Shown here: positions 29,801 through 55,921 of the stretch, piece after piece | Layout: each line of letters begins with the position of its first letter | How positions within the stretch are numbered: the first letter of the stretch is position 1 | Source of the DNA: Squalus acanthias | Taxonomy: Eukaryota | Reading direction: 5' to 3' | DNA length: 64,000 bases | NCBI GenBank assembly: GCA_030390025.1 | Contig: JASTWF010000288.1 | Span: forward strand, 434,001-498,000 | Notes under the pieces: generated by a model | Told to the model about the DNA's origin: nothing | The model's input: only the letters and a program-made list of their open reading frames with translations | Database searches by the model: none | Position numbers and translations under genes: made by a program

Positions 29801-29873
29801 CGGCAGACGCGGTAGGTAAGTGCGCGCGCGATCCTTACCCCCGCGGCAAGCCGGAGAGGCGAATTTCTGGGCC
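26839..29873 (+). mobile_element. Non-autonomous PIF/Harbinger-type DNA transposon (3035 bp)
   Basis: Imperfect 14-bp TIRs GGGCCAAAGATTCG / CGAATTTCTGGGCC; exact 3-bp TSD GTT; the interrupted pLTR rejoins seamlessly; carries Myb/SANT-partner gene exons on - and a possible transposase C-terminal remnant (AARGQLVANTF, about 27780-27830) on +. Confidence 0.88.
28371..29396 (-). pseudogene. Harbinger second gene (Myb/SANT-like partner), exons downstream of the Myb domain
   Basis: Exon starting at 29396 after ttttAG encodes SKTAHNARERALTGGGVVTLRALSEHEERLE (the TGGG motif that follows Myb/SANT-like domains). Next acceptor tttccacAG at about 29120 leads, with one frameshift, to an acidic/coiled-coil 219-aa ORF. 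The Myb domain exon itself is not seen. Confidence 0.75.
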
Positions 29874-30277
29874 GTTAACTCTGTTTCTCTCTCCACAGAT
29901 GCTGCCTGACCTGCTGAGTATTTCCAGCACTTTCTGTTTTTATCATGCAAATAGTCTTGTGGGTAGATCAGTAATGTTGAAACAGCTGACCATCTTGAAT
30001 TCTTTGAAAAGGAAATTATTAATCTATAAGGGTCTTGTGAATAACAACCCCAGATATGGTGTGAGGCTCTGGGTGGCGGGGCAGGGGGACGGATGCGGAT
30101 GGGCAGGGCGGGAACGGGTGGGGGGCAGGGGGGTTACAGGCAGAGGTGCTCGGTGGTGGGACATGGGGCAGTCGGGGCCGGCCTGGGGGTCATGGGGGGG
30201 CTTGGTGGAGGGGAGGGGCGACAGGCTGGGGGGTGAGGGGGTGCTTAAAAACTCAGCGCCTTTTGAGCTCAGAGCAG

Positions 30278-30633
30278 AGACCACACAGCTGTTTGAAGAA
30301 CACCCAGCTATCAGAAGACCGCACAGCTGTTTGAAGAACACCCAACTATCAGAAGACCACACAGCTGTTTGAAGAACACCCAGCTATCAGAAGACCGCAC
30401 AGCTGTTTGAAGAACACCCAACTATCAGAAGACCGCACAGCTGTTTGAAGAACACCCAACTATCAGAAGACCACACAGCTGTTTGAAGAACACCCAACTA
30501 TCAGAAGACCACACAGCTGTTTGAAGAACACCCAACTATCGGAAGACCACACAGCTGTTTGAAGAACACCCAACTATCAGAAGACCACACAACTGTTTGA
30601 AGAACACCCAACTATCGGAAGACCACACAGCTG
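30278..30633 (+). repeat. 38-bp tandem repeat, about 9 copies
   Basis: Unit GAAGAACACCCAACTATCAGAAGACCACACAGCTGTTT, each carrying a CAGCTG E-box. Confidence 0.93.
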
Positions 30634-31781
30634 AACTTGAAACAACTACACCACCACTTTAATTGCAGCCTGATGGGGTAATATTGTTTTAATCTCTAAT
30701 AATGCCACAGGAGCCTAAAGTTGTTTTGTTCTCTATTGTTATAATAGTCTTCGAATGTTTGATTTGTCTATTAATAAATGAGACATCGATTACCCTTTGG
30801 TGTCACGTCTGAATCTGTTGCACAGTAGAGGAGCAGAACAGTAAAGGGATGCAAAATTCTACCTAATGCCTTGTCTTATTAATTAGCAGTTTCGAGAGTA
30901 AGTCTCAGCACCTTTAAATACCTTATTAAGAAATACAGGATGAGCAGATACTCTGTCCTCTACCGTACCTTATATTGATCCATCAATCAATAGTGAACCA
31001 TCTCTGGCACCTGACTCTTCTTTGTCTTCTCTGCTGGGTTTTGGCAGGAAGCGAGGGAAAGACAGCTGGAACTTCTCTAATCTGTGATTTACAAGGACAC
31101 TTTGCCTGGTTCCCAGCAGTTACTTTTCTTCAGTAATTTTCTCTTTATCCCTAAACTACCCTGCCTGTTGTTAATGATGTTATTTCTTATAGTTTCACAA
31201 TTATAGTTATAAAGTTCTCACATTATAATCTAATCTATTCTATTACTCATGCTAGTTTAAGCTTATATTGTGCTTAATAACAGACAAACGCTGATCTTTC
31301 CCCTGAGTTCGAAGATTCCAAGTAGTCGACCATGAGGAATGTCTTATCAGTGTTGCCTTGATGCCTTGTTGGAGTTTTCTAATAAGATAAATTCTCTTTC
31401 CCATAATGCACGTTGTAGGAAAGGCTGATATTTAGAGATATTTAGTCGATGAGAATCATATATGTATAACTTCAAGTGTAGCCATTGACTAAATAATATT
31501 AGTCATAATTACTCCTGGGGAACTAAAAAGCTAAGACTTGTTCAGAATGTAGCTGCGGGGACAGCCAAACACAGTTTTGACTAAGCTTTGATAACAAGCA
31601 GCTACAGGCTGCTTGTGAAGGTCAAATCATTAAATAACATATTATGATGCTGTATAGAACTTAGAACTCGCTTAACAAAACTAATTGCAACAATATTTAA
31701 AGGATAATTAGTATAAGGACAGAAAATGAGAGAGATCATGGAAGTTAAGGTATTTATCTGGTAGGTTAAAGTGAGATAGTC

Positions 31782-32090
31782 TGGATGGTGGCATAGTGGT
31801 TAGCACTGTTGCCTCACAGCGCCAGGGACCCGGGTTCGAATCCGGCCACAGGGTGACTGTCTGTGTGGAGTTTGCACATTCTCCCCGTGTCTGCGTGGGT
31901 TTCCTCCGGGTGCTCCGGTTTCCTCCCACAGTCCAAAGATGTGCGGGTTAGGTTGATTTGGCTATGATAAATTGACTCTGAGTGTTAGGGGGATTGAATA
32001 CGTGGGGTTACGGGGATAGGGTGGGATATGTGTCAGTGCAGGCTCGATGGGCCGAAATGGCCTCTATCTGCACTGTGGGGATTCTGTGGA
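31782..32090 (+). mobile_element. V-SINE (HE1-like)
   Basis: tRNA-like head (TGGCATAGTGG...GGTTCGAATCC), V-domain GTGGAGTTTGCACATTCTCCCCGTGTCTGCGTGGGTTTCCTCCGG, CR1-like tail. Confidence 0.88.
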
Positions 32091-32642
32091 TACATCAAGA
32101 CGAGTGAAACAGTGCTGATATGGGCCCTTGGTATAAAGGCCTTGTACCAGGGAGGCTGTGAAATGAAAGAGATATGGTAAATTCCAATGGGGTGAAAAGC
32201 TATAAACAAGATAACACGACAGCGGAACAGAGTTAATGAAAATGTACTGGAAAAGGAGTGGCCAGGTTACCAACCTTAACATGAGTGACAATGGTATTTT
32301 GACCATTAGAACCAATTAAAAAAGGTGATTTTGTTAAAGACCATATATGGACACTGGCCAAACGAACTGTTGATAAGAAAAGGGTTAAAACCTCGATACA
32401 CAAAGAACAACTTCACACAGAGATTTTCTGCGAAGAGAAGGAACAGACTTACGACGACGTTGCCTGTGTCCGAAGGGCTCCAGCAACCAAGGGCTGCCAG
32501 CTATTCGTTTTACTATCGCCTAATGTTAAGTATTGATTACGCTGTAAGCTTAATAAATCTGATCTATTGCTCAAATATGCTGGCTGCTGCCTATTTGTGT
32601 CTTGTCCAAGAACTTTGAGTGGTCACTTGACTGACTCACAAT

Positions 32643-32660
32643 TGGCACCCCAGATGGGAC
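32643..32660 (+). promoter_or_regulatory. Primer-binding site, tRNA-Arg(CCU)-type
   Basis: TGGCACCCCAGATGGGAC is complementary to GTCCCATCTGGGGTG-CCA, the 3' end of a vertebrate tRNA-Arg(CCT) as I recall it; it follows the LTR-terminal CA and precedes gag. Confidence 0.8.
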
Positions 32661-34060
32661 AAGACAAAGCGGCTAGTGTTGTGCAATAGACCAGACCTCG
32701 AGAGTAGCCTCCTGATCAGCTGCTGCTCCTGGGGAGGGATTAACCCTTCGTGGGGAGTGCCCGTGAATTGCGCGCCGATAGTTATAGATGTTAGAGGTCT
32801 GTTAAGAAAACTACAAAATGACTAGTAAAAGTTTTGTTAACACGTATAAGGGTAAGTTAGACAGAGGTGCCTGTGAGGAGGAAGTACAGGTACTATTGAC
32901 GGAATGTTTAAGCAAAGGAGACCGAGTCCCCTTTGACGAAGTGATGAACTTTATTCAGGAACGTGTGGATCTAACAAAGGTTAAAAGTGAGAAGGCGGCT
33001 CGGCTACTCGCCTATGCAGTATTTTACTGTGCTCAAAGAGATGGTGAGTACTGTAAGAAACAAAGGCAAGAGAGAGAAGATTAAGAGCACAACACAATGA
33101 GTCAAAAGAAAAACATAGCCGGGAGGTAGAGGACTTAAGGAAGCAGCAAGAGCTGGAGGTGGAAGACTTCAAAAGAAAGCAGGTTCAGGAAGTGAGAGAT
33201 TTGAAAAAGCGAATTACTGACTTAGAGAGCCGGACCTCTCAAGCTGCGGTAGTTCGGCAACAACAGAGCGTGTGCACAGTCCAGGCAGGAAGCGTTGTAC
33301 GTGAACTAGAAGAAACCAAACTGGCGTTACAATCTTGTGAGATAGAGAGGGAGAATCTTACACGCGATCTACAAGATGCCAGAGACGCCTTGAGGGAACT
33401 CTCCAGCGCCCTTATAGAGAGACGGATCACACCCCGTGTAGATTGAAGATATACAAACTAGAGGGAAAGCTGGGAAAACGGGAGGCTGTTGTGGCTGCTG
33501 TTACTGCCAGATGGTATGATGCAGCAGTGGGAGCAGCGGGCGGAGGAGAAATGATAGACTGGGATACACTAGAAGGCAAAACATATCAGCACGGCCGACA
33601 TGATGGTTGGGGAGACCCCGGGGTGTCCTCCAGCCAAGAGGAGAGGCGGTCGGCCCCTGTGAGTGTCATAGTTAGAACCCAGGCCTATAATGACAAGGGG
33701 GGAGAAAACCTCCTCCGAGAAGCGCTCCGTTCCCCTCAATGCTGCCGAAGTACAAGCTTGTGTTAATGAGTTAGGCCCCATAACACTATCCAAGTGCCCC
33801 ATCGACGATAAAGTTCGATGGAATGCTTGGATGCGGGGACACAGCGAATTAGAGGACAGCGATTTGAAACGCATCCTCCTCGCTGCCACTAACCCCAAGA
33901 TACGGCAAAATCTTCCGTTCCTGGTTTATAATATCGCCACTGCCTCGGCAGCAGTCATGGAGTCCATTCAGGAACAGTTAGGCATTAACAGCATGGAATA
34001 ACAACAGAAAACGCTGGAAAAACTCAGCAGGCCAGGCAGCATCCGTGGAGAGAGAAAGAG

Positions 34061-34097
34061 AGTTAACGTTTCAGGTCGATGACCTTTCATCAGAACT
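34061..34097 (-). ncRNA. Minimal hammerhead ribozyme motif (mirror copy)
   Basis: Exact reverse complement of 34721-34757. Confidence 0.7.
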
Positions 34098-34720
34098 GGG
34101 AAGAGCCGGAAATCAAATAGATTTAAGGCCAGGGTAAAGCTGGGAAAAGGGGGAGGGGATAAAGGAACAAAGGGGGAGATGAAGAGACATTAAGAGACAT
34201 TAAGAGATATGCAAGGCTAGAGGTGGTGTTAATGTGACAGATTAAGGCTGAATGAAGTGTGAAATCCACTGGCAGAATGAAGGACAGCTGCCAGCTTCTA
34301 GGAGGAAAAAAAAGGGTGGGGGGGGACAAATAAAAGGGTGGATAAAATAAAATATAAATGTGATTGGAGCTGAGGTTATGATCTAAAATTGTTGAAGAGT
34401 CCCTCTGGACTCAATATCGAGTTCAACAATTTTAGATCATAACCTCAGCTCCAATCACATTTATATTTTATTTTATCCACCCTTTTATTTGTCCCCCCCC
34501 ACCCTTTTTTTTCCTCCTAGAAGCTGGCAGCTGTCCTTCATTCTGCCAGTGGATTTCACACTTCATTCAGCCTTAATCTGTCACATTAACACCACCTCTA
34601 GCCTTGCATATCTCTTAATGTCTCTTAATGTCTCTTCATCTCCCCCTTTGTTCCTTTATCCCCTCCCCCTTTTCCCAGCTTTACCCTGGCCTTAAATCTA
34701 TTTGATTTCCGGCTCTTCCC

Positions 34721-34757
34721 AGTTCTGATGAAAGGTCATCGACCTGAAACGTTAACT
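34721..34757 (+). ncRNA. Minimal type I hammerhead ribozyme motif
   Basis: AGTT-CTGATGA-A-AGGTC atc GACCT-GAAACGTT-AACT: catalytic core, stem II, palindromic stem III, stem I AGTT/AACT. Confidence 0.75.
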
Positions 34758-35770
34758 CTCTTTCTCTCTCCACGGATGCTGCCTGGCCTGCTGAGTTTTT
34801 CCAGCATTTTCTGTTGTTATTTCGGATTTTCAGCATCCGCAGTATTTTGCTATCGTATTAACAGCATGGATATGGCTAAGAAATGTTACCAAACAACACA
34901 GGGACCAGTAGAATCACCCACTGTATACAGTGATAGGCTCTACACCGTTTATGGTGGAACCCAAGGAGTTGCTCCTGAATCCGATGACGAAGGGAAGGAC
35001 CAGGAACCATTCAAGAAACAATTCTTGCAAAGCTCACTGAGGCGCGCTCTAGGACACACGGTCTCACCTGTGACTGAGTGTCCTGAACTACTCCAGACCA
35101 CCAATCGGGCATGGACTTTTGCAAGGGAGGAGTGTAAACCAAAAAAAACTGTTCGTGTGGTAGAAAAACCTGTCAATGTGGAAGAAAAACCTGTTAGTGT
35201 GGTAGAAGGGCCAGTTATGCCCACTGCACCCCCCTACACACGTCAATTAGAAGGAAATTGTTGCAACTGTCGGAGACCTGGGCACTATTCTAAATTTTGT
35301 AAGAAACCTCAAAAACCGGGCCAACGGCACCCTCCCTTTCAAGGAAATCTACCCCCATCACCACCAATAATATCCGCTGATCCCCTGGAGACCAAGGTAG
35401 ATCAATTGGCCGGAGAAATGAGTAAAATAACAACCATACTGAACACCCACCTTGTTACAAGAGCTAATCGGGTGGCGGCTGTCTCGGATCCGGCTGGATG
35501 ACAGCCACAGGGATCCCAGGCAACGGCCCAATGAAGGGGACGGGCCCCTCTTGGTCGGAAGTGGGGTTCCGACGTGATGTTAACGGGCGACCGGAAATTT
35601 TGGTTGTTCTACCGGGGGGGCCGACAACAAATCATGCTTATTGACACCGGCTCATCCGTTACCATCATCCATACCCCACACCCTGAACGCCATGGTGCGG
35701 CGGGCAAGGGCTGCCTGACATTACAAGGCTTTGATGGGAGGTCAGGCTCTGCTTTTAAGGGAGAAATGAT

Positions 35771-36497
35771 GGGCCAAAAATTCGACCCTTCCCGGGTGAG
35801 TACACAGTCCGTACTCACCCGTAATGCGTCCCGAAGTGCCGGTTTCCTGCATGCACTGCGCATGCGTGGGAAACCGGAACTTCCGGTATGGTGAAGGGGG
35901 CGGTTCCTAGGTGAACCGCGTGTGCGGTAGAGGCTGCGCGCACGCAGCAAACTTAGATTTTTTTTCAGGTTTCTACGCGAGGGTAAGTATTGAAGAAACT
36001 ACGCTAATAAAAAGGAGGCACAGGACCCGTTTTCAACAAGGTAAGTGGTTAATTAAGTATAATTTAAAAAAAATTTCAACAGGTTTATCTTTTGTAGATA
36101 CTTTAAAGAAAGGTAAGTTTATTTTTAGCACTTTTTGTTTAAAGTGGTTAATTTATTTAACTACAGTTATTTTATAAATGTGATGGTTTTTTTTAAAATT
36201 TATTTTAAGTTTAGCTGTTCTTTTGGGGCCGATTTCAATTCACAGATTTGACAGGTCTCCTGTCAAATCTATGAATGAAAGATGGTCTGCTGCCATTGGC
36301 TCTCCATGGCCCACATGATCCCAGGGACGCATCGCACTAACTACGCCCCTGGGACACGCAAGCACTGCGCGCTGGCAATTGGAGCAGGCCCAGGAGCTGA
36401 AGTTCCTGTGGGCCCAAAACACAACGGCAGGCGCGGTAGGTAAGTGCGCGCGCGATCCTTACCCCCGCGGCAAGCCGGAGAGGCGAATTTCTGGGCC
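35771..36497 (+). mobile_element. Harbinger-type MITE in the protease
   Basis: TIRs GGGCCAAAAATTCG / CGAATTTCTGGGCC; TSD GAT; excision restores ...FKGEMIPLRTKG in frame. Confidence 0.92.
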
Positions 36498-37028
36498 GAT
36501 ACCTCTGCGCACAAAGGGGATCGATTTAAATGTTGATGACCCTGTCATGATGACAACTCCTGATGGAAGGGGCATATTGGGAAGTGATGTTTTGGAAAGT
36601 TACGGGACAATTATTGATTACAACCAGAGGTGTATTTGGATCGGGACAGGAGGTAGTGAATTGGTCGAAATATCGGATGCCCACTCCGTATTTGTGATTA
36701 AGAGGACTTGCTTGTACGAGGCACCAGATCACCCAGACGTGCGAGTCAAATTATTAATTCAAATGCACTCACCCGCATTCGCCACTAGTAAGCATGACTG
36801 CGGTTGAATGGAGGGTGAGGAGACGATTAACGGCCCGCCACACTCCTTTGTTAAACAGTACCCAATTCCCAAAGAAAGTCATCCCTATATCCGAGATACC
36901 CAAACCCCCCAAAAAAAACACTGCAGACAGCAGGATTTGACACGTTGGACCCCCTGGGACACATCTCATTGTCTTGGCTGTGCTCTTGGTGTGTCTTTGA
37001 TGTAAGGACACCTTCCCTGAAAGATTGT

Positions 37029-37772
37029 GGGCCGAAAATTGATCCCGGGACGCGAGAGTACGCACTGCGTACTCTCGCGTATTTCCACTCCAATTGCCGG
37101 TTTTCTGCATGCCCTGCGCATGCGCTGAAAACCGGCAATTGCTCTTCTGAAAAGGGGGCGGGGCCTGCGTGCATCGCGTGTGCGCTACAGGCTGCGCGCA
37201 CGCTGTGCACTTCATGCTGTGGACGCGCAGGTAAGTAGGGAAGATTTTGGAAATGTAAAAAGGAGGAGTAAGACCCGCTTTTAAGAAGGTAAGTAGTGAA
37301 TTAAGTATTTTTTTGAATTTTTTTTTACAGGTATATCTTTTTTATAGACTTTAAAGACAGGTAAGTTTATTTTTATAACATTTTAAAAGATTTTAAATTT
37401 TTTCAAAAATTTAATTTTTTATTTAAAATGGTTAATTTAATTAACTATACTTATTTTATTAATGTGATGGTTTTTTTTTTTAATTTAATTGAGGTTTAGC
37501 TGTTATTTTGGGGGGGTGTAAGATTCATAAGTCTCACAGCCATGCTGTGAGACTTATGAATGGAAGATGGTGTGCTGCCATTGGCTCTAACTGAGTCACG
37601 TGATCCCACAGCTCGCACGAATTAACTACGCCGCTGGGATACGCAAGCCCAGCACAGCTGATGTCTGGAACATCAAGTTCGTGCGAGCTGGATCAGAAAA
37701 AGCATAAGCGAGGTGAGACATCGCGGGGAAGGCTTACCCCCGCGGGAACAGAGCGAGATCAATTTCTGGGCC
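37029..37772 (+). mobile_element. Harbinger-type MITE, diverged subfamily
   Basis: TIRs GGGCCGAAAATTGA / TCAATTTCTGGGCC; internal homology to the other copies; TSD imperfect (TGT/ATT). Confidence 0.88.
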
Positions 37773-37834
37773 ATTATCTCTGCAGTGTCTATGTTTATAT
37801 ACGGTGTAATGTTGTAGATTCACTCACTGTACCT

Positions 37835-37872
37835 TTGCCTGACGAAGGGGCGATAGCTCCGAAAGCTTGTAA
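37835..37872 (+). ncRNA. Minimal hammerhead ribozyme motif (degenerate stem I)
   Basis: CTGACGA-A-GGGGC gata GCTCC-GAAAGCTT. Confidence 0.6.
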
Positions 37873-40532
37873 TTTTAAATAAATCTGTTGGACTATAACC
37901 TGGTGTTGTGCGACTTCTCATTTTTGTCCACCCCAGTCCAACACCGGCATCTCCGCATTATATAAGAGATGTCAGCGACTCCCTCGAAACAGGGCATTCT
38001 GAGAACTGGCACTTTCACGACCAATTCACCAGCTTGGCTGGTTCGGAAGCCGGACGATAGCTGGAGGCTTACTATTGATTACCGAAGTCTTAACAAGGTT
38101 ACGCCCAAGAGCGCCCCTATCGTTAAGGATGCGCCGACCTTATTATCAGAACTCCCAAAAAACTCTAAATACTACTCCAGCCGAGACATTGCCAACGGCT
38201 TTTGGAGTATTCCCGTCAGAACAGAGGATCAAGATAAATTTGCCTTCACCTTTGAGGACCAGAGTTACACGTGGACGTGCCGACCCCAAGGCTTCCACAA
38301 CGCCCCGACCGTCTTCCATACCAGAATGGTACGGATCCTGAAAGCTTTTTCTTAGCCCCAGTGCCTGCTTCAGTATGTCGACGACTTGCTACTGGCTACT
38401 AGTACAATCGAGGAGCACCTTGAACTGTTTGATGAACTTTTAACACTGTTAAGCAGGGCGCGGCTTGAAAATTAACCTTCAAAAAGCTCAGCTTTTGCAG
38501 GAACAGGTCACCTATTTGGGAGTGACAATCTCTCCTCAGAGTCTAAGTCCCGACGAGCACAAGATAGAGGTCATTCAACGACTCCCGCTTCCTGTATCCA
38601 GGGCAGCGCTCCGATCGTTTTTGGGACTAGTGGGATACCAGCGTAGTTTTATTCCTGGATTTGCAGAACTTGCAAGGCCCCTCTATGAACTGTTAAAAGA
38701 AAAAGAGGATCAAATTTCCTCCCTGTTGGGACCAGATCACACCGCTGCAGTTAAGAAATTGAAACTGGCTGTTATGCAGGCTACCTGTTTGATATCACCC
38801 GACCCGACACAGCCATTCCATCTCGAGGTCGCATCCACCGAACATAGTCTGACTGCGGTCCTATGTCAAGGACGACTGCACAGGTTACAACCGATCGCAT
38901 GTGCCTCACGGGTTTTGCAGGGGGCAGAACGGACTTATTCAGCCTGTGACCGCCACCTACTGACAACATTCTGGGCCAGTCAACACTTTACCTACTATAC
39001 GGGCTTACAGAGGATCATCTTGCATTCCCCTCACAACCCACTGAACCTCCTTAGCAAACCAGGCAATTCTTTGATCTCATCCCAACGCATCAGTAAATGG
39101 ACTTTAGAACTATTACAACGGGACATTGATATAACCTCCAAACAGACCACTCTTTTGCCACTGATGCTTGCGTACGAGGGACACCCTCACAAGTGTCCGC
39201 TGCCTTTAATAGACTTTGAGTCCCATCCTGTTTTGCGATCACCAATAGAAGGAGCCTCTGAAGTATACGTGGATGGCTCCTCCTACCACATACAGGGCTC
39301 ACCTCATACCGGATGTGCTGTGGTCCTACCCGAGAAGAAACTCAAGTTTAAAAGTAACAAACACTCGAGCCAATATGCAGAGATTTTGGCCCTTCTCATC
39401 GCCGTTCGAGAAACTTCTGGCTACCCGACAAACATTTGCTCTGACAGTGCCTATGCCATCAATGCCATGCTGACCCTTCCCCTCTACCAAAAGAATTCCT
39501 ACTTCTCGTCAGATGGTAAACCCCTAACCCATGGGCCATGGCTGCGTCCCATATGGCAGGCCCTGAAGGCACGACAAAAGCCTCGTCACATTGGTAAGGT
39601 TAATGCTCACAGGAGAGACCAGTCCGCTCACGCCCTGGGAAATAATGCGGCAGATGTAGCTAACTAAAGATGCAGCCCTGACCGGTGATCCTCACCCTCT
39701 ACTACTTGAGGAGGTAATGCCAGTTGCCGCGGTTAGCTCAGCTCTCGATCTGGCTTCCCTTCAGACAGAGTATAGCCCCTATCAGATAGTCATCAATTGG
39801 CATGACCAAGGTAAACCCTTACCGGCACCCACCGCATGGGCCCCCAAGACCCTTCTTACTACAAAGGCTTCAGAACCATTACTTATGTATCAAAATACCC
39901 CAGATAAGTACCCGGTTGTCTGTATTCCCCCACACCTGGCTGAAGAACTCTTGTTCCTATTCCACTCCCACCCTGTAGGAGGTCATTATTCGGCAGAAGT
40001 CACTTTCACAAAGATTGCCTCCACAGCCTGGTGGTCTGATATGAAGGAAACTGTAAATGTAAATGTTTCCCGATGCATACCTTGTTTGCAGCAGAACCCC
40101 TCCCCTTGTTCCAACCGTGCCCTCCTTCGAAGTCAGCCAGGCCCTGATGGGCCCTGGACTCATGTTCAAATTGATTTTATTGGTCCCCTCCCACCTTCGC
40201 AGGGCAATTATAAATACGCCCTCGTTGTTATCGACCAGTTCACGAAATGGATTGAGGCCTTCCCCTCCCGATCCAACACTGCGCTTACCGCGGCCAGATT
40301 GTTATTGAGCGAGGTGTTCCGTAGGTGGGGACTGCCACATCAAGTTGATAGTGATCAGGGCACCCACTTCACTGGTGAAGTTTTTTCCAAATTACAGGAA
40401 ATTAGGGGAATGAAACATAAGCTACATATAGCTCATCATCCCCAATCATCCGGGATAGTGGAAAGAGGGAATCGCACACTGAAATCCATGTTCGGAAAAT
40501 TGTGTGCTGAACACCCCTCTCAATGGGTCAAG

Positions 40533-41274
40533 GGCCCAGAAATTAAACACTGAGTGTTCACGCGGGGGTAAGGCTTCCCCGCGATATCTCACTCCACGCC
40601 TACCTTTTTCCTCCGGACCCACATGAACTTTAGTTTCAAGGCTGCAGCTGTGCAGTGCTTGCGTGACCCAGAGACGCAATTAGTTCATGCGAGCTCTGGG
40701 ATCACGTGATTCAGTTAGAGCCAATGGCAGCACACCATCTTTCATTCATAGTTTTGACAGGAAGACCTGTCAAAGCTATGAATACTATACCCCCCCAAAA
40801 GAACAGCTAAACCTCAATTAAATTTAAAAAAGCCATCACATTAATAAAATAAGTATAGTTAAATAAATTAACCACTTTAAACAAAAAATTAAATTTTTGA
40901 AAAAATTTTAAATCTTTTTAAAAGTTATAAAAATAAACTTACCTTTCTTTAAAGTCTCTAAAAAAGATAAACCTGTTGAAAAAAATTTAAAATAATACTT
41001 AATTAACTACTTACCTTGTTAAAAGAGGGTCTTACGCCTCCTTTCTTTATGTGTAAAATCTTCCATGCTTACCTGCGCGTTCAAAGCACTAAGTGCACTG
41101 CGTGCGCGCAGCCTGTAGCGCGCACGTGGTTCACTTAGGAACCGCCCCCTTTTGAATTCACGAAGTGCCGGTTTCCCACGCATGTGCAGTGCATGCAGAA
41201 AACCGGCAATTGGAGACCTAAAACGCGAGAGTACACAGTGCGTACTCTCGCGTATTAGGTCTAATTTTCGGGCC
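40533..41274 (-). mobile_element. Harbinger-type MITE in the integrase
   Basis: Ends GGCCCAGAAATTA / TAATTTTCGGGCC; TSD AAG/AAT; excision restores HPSQWVNMLPMCLMAIRSTP. Confidence 0.92.
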
Positions 41275-42027
41275 AATATGTTACCCATGTGTTTAATGGC
41301 AATTCGGTCCACGCCACATAGGACCACGGGGATATCACCTTACCAGGCAATGACTGGGAGGCTGATGAGGACTCCAGGTCATCTAACTTTGACTGGCACC
41401 ACCCCACTCATGCAACAACCATGTAACCACTCGTGGTTGGAGCGCACAGCCGTTAACCGACACGTGGCAAAGAATTTAGGGAAATCTAAAAACCAAATCA
41501 AGAAAGACTTTGACCAGAAGGTTCGACCTTTTGAATATCAGATAGGTGATAAAGTCATGCTACTAAATTATGGGAAAAAGATCAATGCGTTTGACCCCAA
41601 ATGGAAGGGGCCCTACTCGATAGTGGATAAATTGAATCCAGCCATGTATCTGGTTCAGTACCCTAAAGGGAGAGTGGAAAAGGCAAAAGTAACTAAATGA
41701 TACCATATCAATCAGTTAAAGACTGTGAAAGAATAAATACTGCACTCTTTCTTCCTCCAGGTGACCAAAATGGCAGGACTCAGATGCATAGTGGGACTTC
41801 TGATGCTCGTTGGTATCGACCAGACTTCGAATTGTAGCATCATCCAGAAAGGAGTCAAGATGCCAACCGACGAGACATCATCATGGGAAGCGGCTTCAGG
41901 AGATGGATGCGATATGACTGTGTACTGTGATTATTGTGAACCCGATAATACGACCGATGGGATCCCTTGTTTATGGGCCAGGGAGGGCAAAGGGATTAAA
42001 ATAGAGTGTCCATGTACTAAAGACAAT

Positions 42028-42791
42028 GGCCCAGAAATTAAACAGTGAGGGTTCCCGCGGGGGTAAGGAATCCCCGCGATATCGCACTCCGCGCCTACCT
42101 TTTTGCTCCGGGCCCACACGAACTTTAGTTTGAAAGGCTCTCTCTGTTGGAACCGTGCAGTGCTTGCGTGACCCAGAGACGCAATTAGTTCGTGCGAGCT
42201 CTGGGATCACGTGATTCAGTTAGAGCCAATGGCAGCACACCATCTTTCATTCATAGTTTTGACAGGAAGACCTGTCAAAGCTATGAATACTACACCCCCC
42301 CAAAAGAACAGCTAAACCTCAATTAAATTTTTAAAAAAGCCATCACATTAATAAAATAAGTATAGTTAAATAAATTAACCACTTTAAACAAAAAATTAAA
42401 TTTTTGAAAAAATTTTAAATCTTTTTAAAAGTTATAAAAATAAACTTACCTTTCTTTAAAGTCTCTAAAAAAGATAAACCTGTTGAAAAAAAATAAAAAT
42501 AACACTTAATTAACTACTTACCTTGTTAAAAGGGGGTCCTACGCCTGCTTTCTTTATGTGTAAAATCTTCACCACTTACCTACGCGTTAAAAGCTGAAAA
42601 AATAACTAAGTGCACTGCGTGCGCACAGCCTGTAGCGCGCACGCGGTTCACTTAGGAACCGCCCCCTTTTGAATTCACGAAGTGCCGGTTTCCCGCGCAT
42701 GCGCAGTGCATGCAGGAAACCGACAATTGGAGACCTAATACGCGAGAGTACACAGTGCGTACTCTCGCGTATTAGGTCTAATTTTCGGGCC
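42028..42791 (-). mobile_element. Harbinger-type MITE in env
   Basis: Same ends as the 40533 copy; exact TSD AAT; excision restores CTKDNVQVTP. Confidence 0.92.
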
Positions 42792-44117
42792 AATGTTCAA
42801 GTAACCCCTGTTAAGATTCTCAAAATTCACAGATCCCCCAAAACTCAGAGAAAAACCCTAAAGAAAAGGACTTTGGACTCTTTTCTAACCACTTCAGGGT
42901 GATAAAATGTATTGGGCCTAACAGAGGGAGAGATTCAAGGTCAAAAACCGAGATTTGGTATTTTAAAAAGGCATGTTTGGGCTTGTAAAGGAAAAAGGCT
43001 GCAACAGGAATGGGATCAACCTCTGTAAAGACAGTTTGGGTATTGGAGTTAATCAAACTGTCTGGGGAACTGTCTAACGTCACTTGGCCCCTATCAGACA
43101 ATTTACATTCCAACAATAGACCCACGGAAGAGCAGTCCCCACCCAAATTACAAGACCCATCCAAAACATGCATAAATCAAATCACCTGGCCCCACTCCAT
43201 AGAAATCTCAGGCCCAGTCAGGAAACTCGAAACCTGAGCACAATGACTGCAATCAAGAAAGAGCTCAACAGCTCATGGAACCCTCCCGAAACCATTTCAC
43301 ACATTCATAAACAAGTTACTATTAACGAGCCCGCCAAAATCTTACAATAAACCGGGACTGATTTGGCGCGCAGATTAGGAGGCCCCAATTAGTATAATTG
43401 AAGGCCTGTTTTCTCAAGAAGGCAGTTCAAGTTCAAACGGTTCAGCAGTTACACAGAAGTTCACCAGGTTCAACAGCTCTGCAGTTCTCAGGAGTTCATC
43501 GAGTTCGAAGAAGTTCACCATTCTAGAAGTGGATCAACACCAAGAAGACACCAGAGCAACAGTTCCAGTGACCGTCAGACACCTCGCGTCAACAACCAAC
43601 CGAATATTACCACCAACCAACCGGGAAATATTGGGCCACCGCGACCAAAGAAAACCAACTCGGGAGAAAACCGAAGACTCGCAAGTTTCCACTCTGCAAT
43701 CTATTCCTGACTTACCCCTGGGTAAGATTTTTACTCAAAAGACTCTAAACCCTAACTCTAACTGAAGAAAAGTGGGTACTCACCCGATAAATCCAATACG
43801 CACCCTACCGCATCAGCGGACTCGCGAAGACTGACGAGCTATGCAGTTGAAGTCCTCTACCGCGTCCGGGGTACGGCAGACACCAACCAACATATAGAGC
43901 GAACCCCAATACCGCGAACCAGCTCAACTCTCAAGGAATCGTTTTGGTGAGTATCATCCCTGGTTCTCTCGGGTCCAACTTAGCTAGTAAAGTGGGATTG
44001 GGAGGGGTGAGGTATTTTTCTACTGTAATTTCCTTCATGTGTATCGAAGTGTTCCCCATTTTATTAATGTGAGAAGTCGCACAACACCAGGTTATAGTCC
44101 AACAGCTTTATTTGAAA

Positions 44118-44154
44118 TCACAAGCTTTCGGAGCGCTGCTCCTTCGTCAGGTAA
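44118..44154 (-). ncRNA. Minimal hammerhead ribozyme motif
   Basis: Minus strand TTAC-CTGACGA-A-GGAGC agc GCTCC-GAAAGCTT-GTGA. Confidence 0.72.
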
Positions 44155-44461
44155 AGTGAAGAGATGCATATAGGCACAGCATATATAGTCAGAGAACACT
44201 GCCAGATGATTACAGTTAATCTTTCCAACTGCCCTTTATCACACCTCGGCAGAGAGATAATCACGGCAATCAAAGGTGTGGATGGTGTCCAAACAGGTCA
44301 GTCAGGAAAACATTACATCAAAGACAATGTGGCAGATGCTGGTGTCTGTATGGAAAACAAAAAACGTTTTTTGCTGGAAATCACAGCAGGTCCGGCCGCA
44401 TCTGTGTAGAGAGAACAAGCCAACAACGACTCGAGTCTGGATGACTCTACGTCAGGTGGGG

Positions 44462-45646
44462 TTACATGTAGCGTGACATGAACCCAAGATCCCGGTTGAG
44501 GCCGTCCTCATGGGTGCGGAACTTGGCTATTAGTTTCTGCTCGATGATTTTGCGTTGTCGTGTGTCTCGAAGGCCGCCTTGGAGAACGCTTACCCGCAGA
44601 TCCGAGGCTGAATGTCCTTGACTGCTGAAGTGTTCCCCGACTGGGAGGGAACACTCCTGCCTGGCGATTGTTGCGCGGTGTCCGTTCATACATTGTCGCA
44701 GTGTCTGCATGGTCTCGCCGATGTACCATGCTCCGGGGCATCCTTTCCTGCAACGTATGAGGTAGACAACGTTGGCCGAGTCACATGAGTATGTACCATG
44801 TACCTGGTGGGTGGTGTCCTCACGTGTGATGATGGTATCTGTGTTGATGATCTGGCATGTGTTGCAGAGGTTGCCGTGGCAGGGTTGTGTGGTGTCGTGG
44901 TCGCTGTTCTCCTGAAAGCTGGGTAATCTGCTGCGAACGATGGTGTGTTTGAGGTTAGGCGGCTGTTTGAAGGCGAGTAGTGGGGGCGTGGGGATGGCCT
45001 TAGTGAGGTGTTCGTCGTCATCGATGACATGTTGAAGGCTGCGAAGAACATGGCGTAGTTTCTCCGCTCCGGGGAAGTACTGGACGACGTAGGGTACTCT
45101 GTTGGTTGTGTCCCGTGTTTGTCTTCTGAGGAGGTCGATGCGATTTTTCGCTGTGGCCCGTCGGAACTGTCGATCGATGAGTCGAGCGTCATATCCCGTT
45201 CTTACGAGGGCGTCTTTCAGCGTCTGTAGGTGTCCATCGCGTTCCTCCTCGTCTGAGCAGATCCTGTGTATTCGCAGGGCTTGTCCATAGGGGATGGCTT
45301 CTTTAACGTGGTTAGGGTGAAAGCTGGAGAAGTGGAGCATCGTGAGGTTGTCCGTGGGCTTGCGGTAGAGTGAAGTGCTGAGGTGTCCGTCTTTGATGGA
45401 GATTCGTGTGTCCAAGAATGAAACCAATTCTGAGGAGTAGTCCATGGTGAGTTTGATGGTGGGATGGAACTTGTTGATGTTATCGTGTAGTCTTTTCAGT
45501 GATTCTTCGCCGTGGGTCCATAGGAAGAAAATGTCGTCGATGTATCTGGTGTATAGCGTTGGCTGGAGGTCCTGTGCAGCGAAGAAGTCTTGCTCGAACT
45601 TGTGCATGAAGATGTTGACGTATTGGGGTGCGAATTTGGTCCCCAT
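44462..45646 (-). CDS. Penelope RT C-terminal half + GIY-YIG endonuclease (open 394 aa, N-truncated)
   Basis: MGTKFAPQY, RYIDDIF, FLD, LYRKPTD, HP, NVVYLIRC...WYIGET..LR..MNGHR, E.KLI..F....GLN. Confidence 0.9.
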   Translation of the reverse strand: MGTKFAPQYVNIFMHKFEQDFFAAQDLQPTLYTRYIDDIFFLWTHGEESLKRLHDNINKFHPTIKLTMDYSSELVSFLDTRISIKDGHLSTSLYRKPTDNLTMLHFSSFHPNHVKEAIPYGQALRIHRICSDEEERDGHLQTLKDALVRTGYDARLIDRQFRRATAKNRIDLLRRQTRDTTNRVPYVVQYFPGAEKLRHVLRSLQHVIDDDEHLTKAIPTPPLLAFKQPPNLKHTIVRSRLPSFQENSDHDTTQPCHGNLCNTCQIINTDTIITREDTTHQVHGTYSCDSANVVYLIRCRKGCPGAWYIGETMQTLRQCMNGHRATIARQECSLPVGEHFSSQGHSASDLRVSVLQGGLRDTRQRKIIEQKLIAKFRTHEDGLNRDLGFMSRYM

Positions 45647-45928
45647 GGCTGTTCCGTCGTTGGCTTGTTCTCTCTACACAGATGCGGCTGGACCTGCTGT
45701 GATTTCCAGCAAAAAAAGTTTTGTGTTTTCCGTACAGACCCCAGCCTCTGCCTCATTGTCTTTGATGTAATGTTTTCCTGACTGACCTGTTTGGACACCA
45801 TCCACACCTTTGATTGCCGTGATTCTCTCTCTGCCGAGGTGTGATAATGGGCAGTTGGAAAGATTAACTGTAATCATCTGGCAGTGTTCTCTGACTATAT
45901 ATGCTGTGCCTATATGCATCTCTTCACT

Positions 45929-45966
45929 TCACCTGATGAAGGAGCAGCCGCTCCGAAAGCTTGTGA
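45929..45966 (+). ncRNA. Minimal type I hammerhead ribozyme motif
   Basis: TCAC-CTGATGA-A-GGAGC agcc GCTCC-GAAAGCTT-GTGA; stem I TCAC/GTGA, palindromic stem III AAGCTT. Confidence 0.78.
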
Positions 45967-47240
45967 TTTCAAATAAAGCTGTTGGACTATAACCTGGTGT
46001 TGTGCGACTTCTCACATTTGTCCACCCCAGTCCAACACCGGCATTTCCACATCAAGCCCATTTTATTAGAGTGTTAAGATTATTGTGTTATATTTTCTCT
46101 TTTGAATAAAGATCAAAGTTCTTGCACCAAACTCAGTTGTCTGCTGCACCTTTTGTCACAACCCCCAAATAAGTCCACGGTCTAGAACCAAGGGAGTGGG
46201 AGCGATTCGAACCGCTCAGAGGTCAGAGGTGAAACTGACACACACCGCCACCCCCTACACCCCCAAAGTTTCAATTAGGAAAAGGAAAGTTTGTAGATCT
46301 AGGGTTCGGATTCGACGAAGCGGTTGAGATTACATCAAATAGTGTGGGGATCCCATATCTGGGACAGAGTTTGAATACACTGAATTGGCCCAAAATAGGT
46401 AAAAGAGATAGGGGAATGATGGGATGTTTCAATGTGGAGCACAAAGAGAGACCCAGGCAAGGACAAGCACTACAGATGGAAATCAGGGGAAGAACAGAGG
46501 AGATAAGGTTACAAAGGAAAAGCGACAAGCATAAAAATAAGAGATACCCATTAATAACAAAAGGACCATCAAACGGATTGGTTGTCAGCCGTACCTATAA
46601 ACAATTGTATAGTGATGACTGGAACGAAATTATCCTGGTAATCTTTAATTTTACAGGTATTCCCTTTCCCGGAAATTTATGTCCTACAGGAGACCGCGGA
46701 TATGATGACCATTTGGTGAGGAAAATGGTGAAGGATAATTTAGATAAGAACCATGCCCAAGACAGATGGGGTTCGTGGGATTTAGAACAGATTTACGTAA
46801 TGGTCAACATTTCAGATCATAATAGTAGCCACTTGAGAACAAAGAGAGGCCTGGGAGAATGGTTAGGGATAGGAACCACCGCGGGAACCGCTGCCTTGAA
46901 CAGGATAGATATAGAAACTATGTGGGAACATGACGAAGTAATGAGGAGACAGTTGAAAGGCCTTCTATCTAACATGAATAAGGGAGATTCAGACACCATA
47001 CAGGAATTGGAGAATATGCTGATAACCACATGAGACGAAACAGAAATATACAGACATCTTCAGGATCATTTTAACAATGCGACAAGAGGGATTAGTAAAA
47101 CAGAACAAGACATCTCAAGGGCTATGGTATGTTCAATTTATGGGAGTTACATGATGGACCAAGTGATGGCAGGGTTAAGTGAAACAGAACGGAACCGAGT
47201 CCCCTCATTTGTCAATGATTCCATGATTAGGAAGTGGCTC

Positions 47241-48733
47241 CACTGTCGGAGGGGCAGTACTGAGGGAGCGCTGCACTGTCGGAGGGGCAGTACTGAGGGG
47301 ACCTGCACTGTCAGAGGGTCAGTACTGAAGGGGGCGCTGCACTGCCGGAGGGGCAGTAATGAGGGAGCGCCGCACTGTCAGAGGGGCAGTACTGAGGGGG
47401 TGCTGCACTGTCGGAGGGGCAGTACTGAGGGGGTGCTGCACTGTCGGAGGGTCAGTACTGAAGGGGGCGCTGCACTGTCAGAGGGGCAGTACTGAGGGAG
47501 CGTGCACTGTCGGAGGGGCAGTACTGAGTGAGCGCCGCACTGTCGGAGGATCAGTACTGATGGAGCGACGCACTGTCGGAGCGGCAGTACTGAGGGAGCG
47601 CCGAACTGTCGGAGGAGCAGTACTGAGGGAGCGACGCACCGTCGGAGGGACAGTACTGACAGAGTGATGCACTGTCGGAGGGGCAGTACTGAGGTTGCGC
47701 TGCACTGTCAGAGAGGCAGTACTAAGGGAGCGTCGCACTGTCGGAGGATCACTACTGAGGGGCGACGCACTGTCGGAGGGGCAGTACTGAGGGGCGATGC
47801 ACTGTCGGAGGGGCAGTACTGAGGGAGCGCCGCACTGTCGGAGGGACAGTACTGAGGGAATGCCGCACTGTCGGAGGGGCAGTACTGAGGGAGGGGTGCA
47901 CTGTCGGAGGAGCAGTACTGGGGGAGCGCTGTACTGTCGGACGGGCAGTACTGAGGGAGTGCTGCACTGCCGGAGGGGCAGTACTGAGGGAGTGCCGCAC
48001 TGTCAGAGGGGCGGTACTCAGAAAGCACTGCACTGTCAGACGGGTAGTACTGAGGGAGGCATGCACTTTCGGAGGGGCAGTACTGAGGGCGCGCCGCACT
48101 GTCGGAGGGCAGTACTGAGGGAATGAGGCACTGCCGGAGGGGCAGTACTGAGGGAGTGACGCACTGTCGGAGGGGCAGTACTGAGGGAGCACTGCACTGT
48201 CGGAGGGGCAGTACTGAGGGAGCGCTGTACTGTCGCAGGGGCAGTACGGAGGGAGCGACGCACCGTCGGAGGGACAGTATTAAGGGAGTGACGCACTGCC
48301 GGAGGGGCAGTACTGAGGGAGCGTCGCACTGTCGGAGGATCAGTACTGAGGGAACGACGCACTGTCGGAGGGGCAGAACTGAAGGGGGCGACGCACTGTC
48401 AGAGGGTCAGTACTGCGGGAGAGCTGTACTGTCGGAGGGGGAGTACTGAGGGAGCACTGCACTGTCAGAGGGGCAGTACTGAGGGAGCGCAGCACTGTCG
48501 GAGGGGCAGTAGTGAGGCAGTGTTGCACTGTTGGAGGGGCAGTACTGAGGGAGTGCTGCACTGTCGGAGGGGCAGTACTGAGGGAGCGCCGCACTGTTGG
48601 AGGGGCAGTACTGAGGGAGCGCCACACTGTCGGAGGGGCTGTACTGAGGGAGTGTTGCACAGTCGGAGGGGCAGTAGTGATGGAGTGCCGCACTGTCGGA
48701 GGGGCTGTACTGGGACAGCATTGCACTGTCGGA
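47241..48733 (+). repeat. 33-bp minisatellite (Deu-SINE-derived), about 45 copies
   Basis: Unit CACTGTCGGAGGGGCAGTACTGAGGGAGCGCTG; runs directly into a Deu-SINE body. Confidence 0.95.
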
Positions 48734-50384: not shown

Positions 50385-50706
50385 ACGCCCGCCTTTCACC
50401 ATCTCGGGACATCCCAAAGCGCGACGCAGCCAAGGAATAGTTTAGCCGAAGCGCGGTTGCTGTTGTACTGCAGGGAAACGCGGCGGCCAACGTACGCACA
50501 GCAGGATCCCATGAACAGCAATGTGGGAAAGACCAGATAAGCTGCTTCTTTAGTGATGCGGGTCGAGGGATAAACATTGGCCCCAGGACACCGGGGCGAT
50601 CCCCCCCCCCCTCCCCACTGCTCTTCTTCCAATCGTGTCCGTGAGATTGTATATACCCACCTGAGACGGGGCCTCAGTTTAATGTCTCGTCTGAAAGACG
50701 GCACCT
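50385..50706 (-). mobile_element. Deu-SINE body
   Basis: Reverse complement of GGTGCCGTCTTTCAGACGAGACATTAAACTGAGG...GTGAAAGGCG. Confidence 0.78.
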
Positions 50707-52155
50707 CCGACAGTGCAGCGCTCCCTCAGTACTGCCCCTCCGACAGTGCGGCGCTCCCTCAGTACTGCCCCTCCGACAGTTCAGCGCTCCCTCAGTACTG
50801 CCCCTCCGACAGTGCAGTGCTCCCTCAGTACTGCCCCTCCGACAGTGCAGCGCTCACTCAGTACTGCCCCTCCGACAGTGTGGCGCTCCCTCAGTACTGC
50901 CCCTCCGACAGTGCGGCGCTCCCTCAGTACTGCCCCTCCGACAGTTCAGCGCTCCCTCAGTACTGCCCCTCCGACAGTTCAGCGCTCCCTCAGTACTGCC
51001 CCTCCGACAGTACGGCGCTCCCTCAGTACTGCCCCTCCGACAGTGCGGCGCTCCCTCAGTACTGCCCCTCCGACAGTACGGCGCTCCCTCAGTACTGCTC
51101 CTCCGACAGTGCGGCACTCCCTCAGTACTGCCCCTCCGACAGTGCAGCACTCCCTCAGTACTACCCCTCTGACAGTGCGGCACTCACTCAGTACTGTCCC
51201 TCCAACAGTGCAGCGCTCCCTCAGTACTGCCCCTCCGACAGTGCAGCGCTCCCTCAGTACTGCCCCTCCGACAGTGCAGTGCTCCTTCAGTACTGCCCCT
51301 CCGACAGTGTGGCGCTCCCTCAGTACTGACCCTCCGACAATGTGGCGCTCCCTCAGTACTGACCCTCCGACAGTGCGGCGCTCCCTCAGTACTGACCCTC
51401 CGACAATGTGGCGCTCCCTCAGTACTGACCCTCCGACAATGTGGCGCTCCCTCAGTACTGACCCTCCGACAGTGCGGCACTCCCTCAGTACTGACCCTCC
51501 GACAGTGCAGCGCTCCCTCAGTACTGCCCCTCCGACAGTGCGACACTCCCTCAGTACTGCCCCTCTGACAGTGCGACGCTCCCTCAGTACTGCCCCTCCG
51601 ACAGTGTGGCGCTCCCTCAGTACTGACCCTCCGACAGTGTGGCGCTCCCTCAGTACTGACCCTCCGACAATGCGGCTCTCCCTCAGTACTGCCCCTGCGA
51701 CAGTGCAGCGCTCCCTCAGTACTGCCCCTCCGATAGTGCGGCGCTCCCTCAGTACTGCCCCTCCGACAGTGCAGCGCTCCCTCAGTACTGCCCCTCCGAC
51801 AGTGCGGTGCTCCCTCAGTACTGCCCCTCCGACAGTGCAGCGCTCCCTCAGTACTGCCCCTCCGATAGTGCGGTGCTCCCTCAGTACTGCCCCTCCGACA
51901 GTGCGGCACTCCCTCAGTACTGCCCCTCCGACAGTGCGGCGCTCCCTCAGTACTGCCCCTCTGACAGTGCGGCGCTCCCTCAGTACTGCCCCTCCGATAG
52001 TGCGGCGCTCCCTCAGTACTGCCCCTCCGATAGTGCGGCGCTCCCTCAGTACTGCCCCTCCGACAGTGCGGCACTCCCTCAGTACTGCCCCTCCGACAGT
52101 GCGGCGCTCCCTCAGTACTGCCCCTCCGACAGTGCGGCACTCCCTCAGTACTGCC
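50707..52155 (-). repeat. 33-bp minisatellite, about 44 copies, reverse orientation
   Basis: Unit CAGTGCGGCGCTCCCTCAGTACTGCCCCTCCGA. Confidence 0.95.
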
Positions 52156-54967: not shown

Positions 54968-55000
54968 GTAAGGGGTCTAAAATTATTACCTTTATTACAG

Positions 55001-55921
55001 AGGGTCAGTACTGAGGGAGCGCCGCACTGTCGGAGGGGCTGTACTGAAGGAGCGACGCACTGTCGGAGGGGCAGTACTGAGGGAGTGCAGCACTGTCGGA
55101 GGGGCAATACTGAGGGAGTGCAGCACAGTCGGAGGGGCAGTACTGAGGGAGCGCCGCACTGTCGGAGGGGCAATACGGAGGGAGCGCTGCACTGTCGGAG
55201 GGGCAGTACTGAGGGAGCGCTGCACTGTCGGAGGGGCAGTACTGAGGGAGCGCTGCACTGTCGGAGGGGCAGTACTGAGGGAGCGCTGCACTGTCGTTGG
55301 GGCAGTACTGAGGGAGTGCTGCACTGTCGGAGGGGCTGTACTGAGGGAGTGCTGCACTGTTGGAGGGGCAGTACTGAGGGAGTGCTGCACTGTTGGAGGG
55401 GCAGTACTGAGGGAGTGCTGCACTGTCGGAGTGCAGTACTGAGGGAGCATTGCACTGTCGGAGGGGCAGTACTGAGGGAGCGCTGCACTGTCGGAGGGGC
55501 AGTACTGAGGGAGCGCTGCACTGTCAGAGGGGCAGTACTGAGGGAGCGCTGCACTGTCGGAGGGGCAGTACTGAGGGAGCGCTGCACTGTCGGAGGGGCA
55601 GTACTGAGGGAGTGCTGCACTGTCGGAGGGGCTGTACTGAGGGAGTGCTGCACTGTCGGAGGGGCAGTACTGAGGGAGCGCCGCACTGTCGGAGGAGCAG
55701 TACTGAGGGAGCGCCGCACTGTCGGAGGGGCAGTACTGAGGGAGCGCCGCACTGTCGGAGGGGCAGTACTGAGGGAGCGCCGCACTGTCGGAGGGGCAGT
55801 ACTGAGGGAGCGCCGCATTGTCGGAGGGGCAGTACTGAGGGAGCGCCGCACTGTCGGAGGGGCAGTACTGAGGGAGCGCTGCACTGTTAGAGGGGCAGTA
55901 CTGAGGGAGCGCCGCACTGTC
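55001..55921 (+). repeat. 33-bp minisatellite, about 28 copies, followed by a Deu-SINE body (to about 56195)
   Basis: Same unit; continues into TTTCGGATGAGACGTTAAACCGA. Confidence 0.95.

Follow-up and report, generated by a model that had tools for sequence, protein, structure and literature searches.

A decayed provirus lies between positions 31415 and 47236 of a 64,000-nucleotide stretch of the genome of the shark Squalus acanthias (assembly GCA_030390025.1, contig JASTWF010000288.1, positions 434,001 to 498,000 of the forward strand), referred to here as the window. It is a real endogenous retrovirus (ERV), present as a dead, decayed and 3'-truncated copy without evident function. Very probably it is the germ-line copy of a canonical retrovirus of a deep-branching fish and amphibian lineage, likely of the Huo grade, in whose family the envelope protein (Env) is predicted to be of the paramyxovirus fusion protein (F) type. 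The element likely represents a known broad kind of ERV, the loosely defined snakehead retrovirus (SnRV)-like or Huo grade, already known from the elephant shark, where an ERV lineage (CmiERV lineage I) clusters with SnRV (PMC4422223). An earlier sequence-only reading had proposed a lokiretrovirus; the cues on which it drew are real and common to other groups as well, hence not diagnostic.

Organization of the provirus

The sequence between positions 29000 and 49000 and its Pfam matches give the order long terminal repeat (LTR), primer-binding site (PBS), gag, pro, pol and env on the forward strand. The sequence-only reading had listed the same order, and sister copies elsewhere in the genome agree with it.

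31415..32640, + strand: 5' LTR (TGT...ACA), split by an insert resembling a short interspersed element (SINE); 84-92% match to both LTRs of two-LTR sister copies
32643..32660, + strand: PBS complementary to tRNA-Arg (search with a pattern of complement and T-loop; ARAGORN)
32819..35534, + strand: gag with N-terminal coiled coil and CCHC zinc knuckle; frameshifted and interrupted, ending at a TGA in the pro frame
35535..36897, + strand: protease (DTG) and spacer, interrupted
37959..39664, + strand: reverse transcriptase (RT; YVDD), tether and RNase H, the RT part bearing one stop codon and one change of frame (Pfam, PDB matches, trees)
39660..41736, + strand: integrase (HHCC, DDE, GPY-type C-terminus), interrupted (Pfam, integrase tree)
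41770..47236, + strand: 5' part of env only, with signal peptide, surface subunit (SU), RTKR furin site, fusion peptide and first heptad region; broken by insertions and cut short at the 3' end
47237..48733, no strand assigned: 33-bp satellite, outside the provirus, starting where env stops

The start had previously been set at 30060. Sister copies align only from about 31413 onward, which puts the start at about 31415; the 5' flank consists of a different repeat family (30824-31417) and a 38-bp tandem array (30278-30633). An LTR end had been recognized correctly, although the whole 5' LTR is in fact present. Neither the 3' remainder of env nor a 3' LTR was found in the window, in the 10 kb upstream of it or in the 30 kb downstream. 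The satellite forms three blocks (47237-48733, 50704-52155 and 55000-55921), the middle one inverted.

Pfam RVT_1 is matched at 37966-38352 (E 2e-15). The RT_RNaseH tether (also matched by RT_RNaseH_2) and a second RNase_H domain share one open frame of 404 amino acids at 38453-39664 (E 1e-22 and 2e-13). Integrase_H2C2 and rve are matched at 39660-40532, and there is a further match to MLVIN_C, the integrase C-terminus of the murine leukaemia virus (MLV) type. The best PDB match is foamy RT for the N-terminal part of RT (1e-23), MLV RT for the C-terminal part (1e-35) and a foamy integrase for the integrase. Gag gave no Pfam capsid match, and its N-terminus, tested for the smc-like gene of some lokiretroviruses, gave weak coiled-coil Pfam matches only. 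An acceptor-like tract lies directly upstream of 41770.

Phylogenetic placement by reverse transcriptase

The placement is based on 131 Pol-like proteins collected by two protein searches. Lokiretroviruses are defined by their RT position (PMC7947760), and rows were labelled by motifs read in the RT alignment in the supplement of that paper. This gave 20 loki-type proteins and one SnRV (P0024, so taken because four motifs match the published SnRV row); the other labelled rows comprise class I, Gypsy and ERVs without names from frogs, coelacanth and fish. From a first RT tree of 65 rows, 26 near-duplicate, long or gappy rows were dropped and four motif labels corrected to give a careful 39-row tree; the topology at the loki node is the same in both.

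The RT fragment of the window is 61% identical to a Xenopus tropicalis ERV, 50-61% to unnamed frog and coelacanth ERVs, 48% to SnRV (no named virus is closer) and 43% or less to the 20 loki-type proteins. In the 39-row tree the lokis form a clade apart (100/100) and the window falls within the canonical clade (98/97), where it and four frames from its own genome are sister to the Xenopus protein P0001 (100/98). Adding the tether (402 columns) raises the canonical clade to 100/100, or 100/99 when two foamy frames are included, and a constraint joining the window with the lokis is rejected on this alignment by the approximately unbiased (AU) test (p=0.0006). Loki monophyly without the window stands at 100/100 in all careful RT, RT+tether and integrase trees and at 100/99-100 in the RNase H trees. 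Gypsy rows form the outgroup at 100/99-100, and endogenous foamy rows of the same genome sit far from the window RT.

DIANGFW, PQGFHNAP and QYVDD are present in pol, in line with the YVDD, DIANGFW and PQGF.N.P noted from the sequence. The loki RT signatures are absent: the window has PQG and LLQYVDD as against CPFG.NSP and IYVDD, and of the 13 loki rows examined in the alignment of PMC7947760, all but a divergent one have the loki forms. In a strict first look, this genome was queried with a lamprey loki-type Pol, and the best of 53 scored candidates was 36% identical to it.

Judged by its RT sequence, the element is placed inside the canonical retroviruses and outside the lokiretroviruses. 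Such nesting had been named beforehand as evidence that would count against the lokiretrovirus proposal; the gap that a shark lokiretrovirus would have filled is therefore not filled. No shark lokiretrovirus is among the literature matches listed, by title or start of the abstract, and the available portions of PMC10699275, PMC12440569, PMC13709493, PMC8278194 and 10.1101/2023.10.26.564294 hold no shark loki record. In the survey table of PMC7947760, five chondrichthyan genomes lack the star that apparently marks positives.

An envelope of predicted paramyxovirus F type

Beyond the 5' part kept in the window, Env was read from related copies in which the frame is naturally open. One such frame, 511 residues long and belonging to a related subfamily, was folded on an alignment of 53 rows, with a predicted local distance difference test (pLDDT) score of 70. 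The model matches human parainfluenza virus 3 F by Foldseek (E 7e-10), and paramyxo- and pneumovirus F proteins are matched in general. Comparison with F structures gave a VIA Z of 11.9 with a high root-mean-square deviation (rmsd), 25 Å over 343 residues, and comparison with Nipah F a Z of 11.8 with an rmsd of 5.3 Å over 288 residues. Weak matches to Pfam Fusion_gly (PF00523) occur in three of seven family Env frames (E 0.026-0.086). Foamy Env is matched as well, by Foldseek (2e-7) and by a profile search against foamy Env structures (E 6e-4), as are the predicted Env structures of walleye epidermal hyperplasia virus 1 (WEHV1), walleye dermal sarcoma virus (WDSV) and feline foamy virus. The CX6CC motif and an immunosuppressive domain (ISD) are absent from the folded frame.

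The model thus predicts a family Env of the paramyxovirus F type, and the likeness to Mononegavirales F proposed by the sequence-only reading is borne out in a related natural frame. An F-like Env is not diagnostic for lokiretroviruses, because the foamy, WEHV1 and WDSV Envs were matched too. The walleye virus matches (BFVD Q9WHI8 of WEHV1, E 5e-10; A4GTG3 of WDSV, E 1e-7), whose TM-scores are low, suggest an F-type Env in epsilonretroviruses.

A profile search with the family Env retrieved 60 relatives. Eight of ten looked up could be named and come from sharks, frogs and the chicken; none of the 60 carries the loki-type fusion-peptide motif. Among 33 Env-like proteins Pfam found no convincing viral family, one weak Baculo_F match (E 0.001) apart, and a search of PDB with profile A3 gave chance coiled-coil matches only. 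The chicken protein (ACR23647.1, P0204; 873 amino acids; profile E 1e-4), conserved across galliforms, fits Ovex1 ORF3 in length and features and may be an F-type Env; the 2009 Ovex1 paper left the identity of ORF3 as an envelope uncertain (PMC2717909). The N-terminus of a further relative (P0150) weakly matches a V-set Ig domain (E 0.045). In the frog Mantella aurantiaca, 16 near-identical annotated Env copies (P0153 cluster) suggest that a family with this type of Env is young there.

Weighing of the alternatives

Several observations weigh against a canonical retrovirus with an F-type Env. On RT alone, joining the window with the lokis costs 24.9 log units and is not rejected (AU p=0.059). 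An exclusive grouping with SnRV is rejected (p=0.008); 'SnRV-like' is therefore a grade label, a clade not being shown. RNase H groups with lokis and coelacanth and frog ERVs (99/96), away from SnRV and class I, in an unrooted tree with a long loki branch and no foamy row. Integrase scores 182 bits against loki-type proteins and 89 bits against SnRV; in its tree it lies outside the 100/100 loki clade, with weak deeper nodes and no CGIN1 row. All trees were built without ERV-L/S, ERV4, Odin and class II rows and with motif-based labels. The Env fold comes from a frame of a related subfamily, 33-49% identical to three env fragments of the window, rather than from the window copy, and a first model on a shallow alignment (16 rows) failed with a pLDDT of 34.

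A lokiretrovirus, or a sister group of the lokis, in a shark would account for the F-like Env, the loki side taken by RNase H, the integrase similarity, the coiled coil of Gag and the RT constraint that survives the AU test. It is nevertheless very improbable: the lokis stay monophyletic without the window in all four kinds of tree, RT with tether rejects the grouping, the lamprey query found nothing close, and the loki RT motifs, the loki-type fusion peptide and a star for the five chondrichthyan genomes of PMC7947760 are all missing. The conflict between the RT and RNase H trees might also reflect recombination of a canonical RT with an RNase H, integrase or env from a loki-like donor, and domain swapping is documented (PMC7947760). 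The same combination, however, recurs in frog and coelacanth ERVs, the RT, RNase H and integrase trees keep the same nearest rows for the window (relatives from its own genome and Xenopus P0001), and the latter two trees place the lineage outside loki diversity. No swap is needed, because shared retention of old characters explains the combination, and we consider a recombinant origin improbable.

An unnamed lineage that branched before foamy viruses, SnRV and class I, as the earliest canonical grade with an ancestral RNase H and an F-type Env retained, is possible, though on the unlikely side. When two endogenous foamy frames were added to the trees, and one long-branched row and two near-duplicates were removed, the foamy viruses grouped with SnRV and class I without the window lineage (93/96 and 94/96), on short branches; the loki-side RNase H and an F-type Env common to lokis and foamy viruses (PMC11468914) would fit. 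Yet these nodes are unstarred, the foamy branch is very long (3.2), sampling is thin, and the conventional tree, in which foamy viruses branch outside, survives the test (p=0.25). That the element is a foamy virus, or a Ty3/Gypsy element with an env, is barely conceivable. The nearest proteins bear automatic names such as 'Gypsy integrase-like', and foamy proteins are the best PDB matches of integrase and of the N-terminal part of RT. The tether with a second RNase H and an RT outside the Gypsy rows set the element apart from Ty3/Gypsy, and the earlier reading was right that it is a true ERV, env included. The RT outside the foamy clade, far from the true endogenous foamy rows of the same genome, the CCHC zinc knuckle and a Pol in frame with gag set it apart from Spumaretrovirinae. 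LTR, PBS, gag-pro-pol-env, the tether with RNase H and an RT within the retroviral clade agree with canonical Retroviridae.

Comparison with known retroviruses

Members of clade Huo are said to infect every major vertebrate lineage (PMC6001957), and the Huo or SnRV-like group is broad, including coelacanth and amphibians (PMC6001957, PMC4977317, PMC12193657). With this group the element has in common an RT 48% identical to that of SnRV, an in-frame gag stop before pro, a Gag with zinc knuckle and N-terminal coiled coil, and closest relatives in frogs and coelacanth, where the group is reported. In contrast, it is not the sister of SnRV, its RNase H and integrase are far from those of SnRV, and no accessory open reading frames (ORFs) were seen. 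An in-frame gag stop before the protease is described for SnRV, gamma- and epsilonretroviruses and Ovex1 (PMC2717909).

With lokiretroviruses the element shares the tether and RNase H (common to all retroviruses), an F-like Env core, a coiled coil ahead of the capsid and perhaps an RNase H of the same broad group. It differs in its RT, which lies outside the loki clade and has other motifs, in the lack of a loki-type fusion peptide among the Env-profile matches, and in its gag/pro stop codon, whereas two loki entries are labelled as single smc/spc7-gag-pol genes. Foamy viruses (8rm0, 8rm1, 8ozh; PMC11468914) resemble it in the C-terminal subunit of Env, by profile and by Foldseek; it is set apart from them by an Env of the signal-peptide type, a zinc-knuckle Gag, a fused gag-pol and a distant RT. 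Ovex1 of birds (PMC2717909) is alike in an ORF3 matched by the Env profile, a readthrough layout and the lack of an ISD and CX6CC, and unlike in being a single conserved locus with an inactive RT, whereas the family of the element is multicopy and decayed.

Shark genomes have been screened for env before (bioRxiv 10.64898/2026.05.06.723177, which required an ISD; PMC12813294). The gamma-type syncytin-like Envs of chondrichthyans described in the former are likewise shark retroviral Envs with furin site and anchor. Because that screen required an ISD and CX6-7C, and the folded Env frame has neither ISD nor CX6CC, the Env type of the element is not expected among its candidates.

The family in the S. 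acanthias genome

The 404-amino-acid tether and RNase H frame has at least 105 matching segments in the 3.71-Gb genome, a count that is a floor because only 103 of 16,564 candidates were scored. Twenty family copies were examined over 20 kb each. Target duplications of 4 bp flank three two-LTR copies with clear ends. LTR pairs of five copies differ by 0.013, 0.020, 0.020, 0.032 and 0.24, the last pair being probably mismatched. At rates of 2.2e-9 and 2.2e-10 per site per year, as used in PMC7947760 and PMC4422223, the closest two-LTR sister would be 3 to 30 million years old. The pol of the window lies at a distance of 0.056-0.059 from three sisters and 0.092-0.095 from two. A search of viral contigs with the RT fragment found no match.

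The tRNA-Arg primer pattern (PBS complement and T-loop) has 85 exact matches in the genome and a control none, and ARAGORN calls a tRNA-Arg at four of five pattern loci. SnRV uses a tRNA-Arg primer. Other subfamilies carry different PBS sequences. A TGA stands in frame directly 5' of the protease frame in 12 of the 20 copies, the other eight being off-frame, ambiguous or without a match; this points to Gag-Pol synthesis by readthrough.

In two-LTR relatives (L025/L026 and L035/L036) pol ends about 0.7-1.1 kb before the 3' LTR, which leaves no room for env. Next to one family copy lies a second retroviral element of another type (L040; C19), epsilon-like by eye only, whose pol frame is long and open and whose gag encodes a zinc knuckle. 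The genome also holds an endogenous foamy virus family (62 matches to PF03539; best PDB match foamy Pol, E 2e-146).

An Env relative annotated as a gene in sharks

The sole two matches to the family Env in a word-index database are annotated shark genes, and a third lies in the same cluster. All three encode full-length, gap-free Env relatives of 739-754 amino acids.

GCC29952.1: Chiloscyllium punctatum
XP_072333160.1: Scyliorhinus torazame
XP_067889054.1: Heterodontus francisci

The three proteins, from three orders, are 85-88% identical overall, with 89-93% in the transmembrane subunit (TM) ectodomain, 83-84% in SU and 60-71% in anchor and tail. Each species has one annotated sequence in the clusters read. 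In S. acanthias, broken Env copies reach 67-88% identity to the catshark protein; a search for an intact counterpart gave broken copies only, the best 80% over 113 amino acids among 57 candidates, which is a floor rather than proof of absence. A capture of this F-type env by the host is plausible, with about even odds or better. Recent independent infections are the alternative, and a replicating virus would give the same regional skew in conservation. A description of this shark gene did not surface in the literature searched; the main survey of gene co-option (Wang and Han) lies outside that coverage and may already list it.

Insertions in the provirus

Seven top-level insertions, with two or more others nested inside them, interrupt the provirus; several are miniature inverted-repeat transposable elements (MITEs).

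31787..32086, + strand: tRNA-headed SINE-like insertion in the LTR with a short flanking duplication; a gap in all sister alignments
33998..34856, no strand assigned: palindromic insertion in gag, flanked by a target duplication of 14 bp; inverted self-match over 827 bp at 97.9%; empty sister sites
35771..36497, no strand assigned: MITE in the protease region with terminal inverted repeats and a 3-bp duplication; one of four related copies
36898..37958, no strand assigned: composite insertion of a nested MITE (about 37028-37775) and a Penelope-like tail; self-match, sister alignments and empty sites
40533..41274, no strand assigned: MITE in integrase; self-match and empty sister sites
42028..42791, no strand assigned: MITE in env, 92% identical to the integrase MITE
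42809..46259, + strand: LTR-like repeat of another family in env (TGT...ACA, 4-bp duplication)
44066..46018, - strand: Penelope-like retroelement fragment nested in the LTR-like repeat; 403-amino-acid frame, weak RVT_1, 364-bp inverted ends

We take the first to be a SINE, the MITEs presumably to be of the Harbinger type and the last fragment presumably to be a Penelope element. Insertion sites were tested against natural sister copies rather than by excision. Six sister copies of about 83-96% nucleotide identity are colinear across the sites, and empty sites were found in three of six for gag, six of six for protease, six of six for pol, five of six for integrase and four of six for env; at the integrase site the sixth copy carries an insertion of its own. 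The target duplications are 14 bp and exact in gag, 3 bp at three top-level MITEs (one imperfect) and about 12 bp and imperfect in pol. The insertion sites proposed by the sequence-only reading are upheld by these empty sites, the SINE-like insert being absent from its list. It had further held that removing the inserts restores the frames; the insertions are real, whereas gag, pol and env still carry in-frame stops and frame changes beyond them.

The last env insertion had been started at 43024 and in fact begins at about 42809. The sequence 42812-43700 is a single continuous repeat in all 39 other genomic matches listed (90-93%), and all five env-retaining sister copies skip the stretch from about 42809, so that 42809-43023 is not env. 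Where two copies of this repeat stand together (locus L098), they enclose a Harbinger-like transposase and not an internal retroviral region. Four copies of one MITE family, 70-92% alike and in both orientations, lie within 7 kb (35770-42794). The sister with the insertion of its own (the C7 copy) carries an independent, different element within a few bases of the integrase MITE site (about 40530). The ends of the gag palindrome match a short repeat also found at 29873-29948.

Proposed history and significance

In the proposed life cycle, reverse transcription of the ancestor would have been primed on tRNA-Arg, Gag-Pol made by reading through the gag TGA, and Env translated from a spliced message that used the acceptor-like tract just before 41770. 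Cleavage at the RTKR furin site would have matured Env, which would then have brought about membrane fusion by F-like refolding. After infection of the germ line the family would have spread by reinfection, and by intracellular copying in the env-less subfamilies, and this copy has since been hit by nine mobile insertions and has suffered point damage.

Foamy Env belongs to the F-like class, outside which orthoretroviral Env has been placed (Fernandez et al., 2024, PMC11468914); independent origins of Env have been preferred on the ground that loki Envs bore no similarity to canonical ones (Wang and Han, 2022, PMC9040795). It is rather unlikely, if by no means negligible, that the lineage is both an early canonical branch with an ancestral loki-type RNase H and F-type Env and the source of an Env captured as a host gene in the ancestor of galeomorph sharks, which would be a capture of the F type and not of the syncytin type. 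If true, F-type Env would be ancestral to lokiretroviruses and canonical retroviruses alike, against that published preference. A statement of a single ancient F-type origin was not found in the literature searched, subscription papers lying outside its coverage. A lokiretrovirus cannot be recognized by an F-like Env and an RNase H on the loki side. Together with the walleye epsilonretrovirus matches, an F-type Env in a canonical lineage other than the foamy viruses would make such a single origin testable, and a captured F-type envelope in sharks would be of a type missed by screens that require an ISD. The importance of the finding rests on the predicted F-type Env in a canonical lineage and on the lead to a shark env gene rather than on this dead copy.

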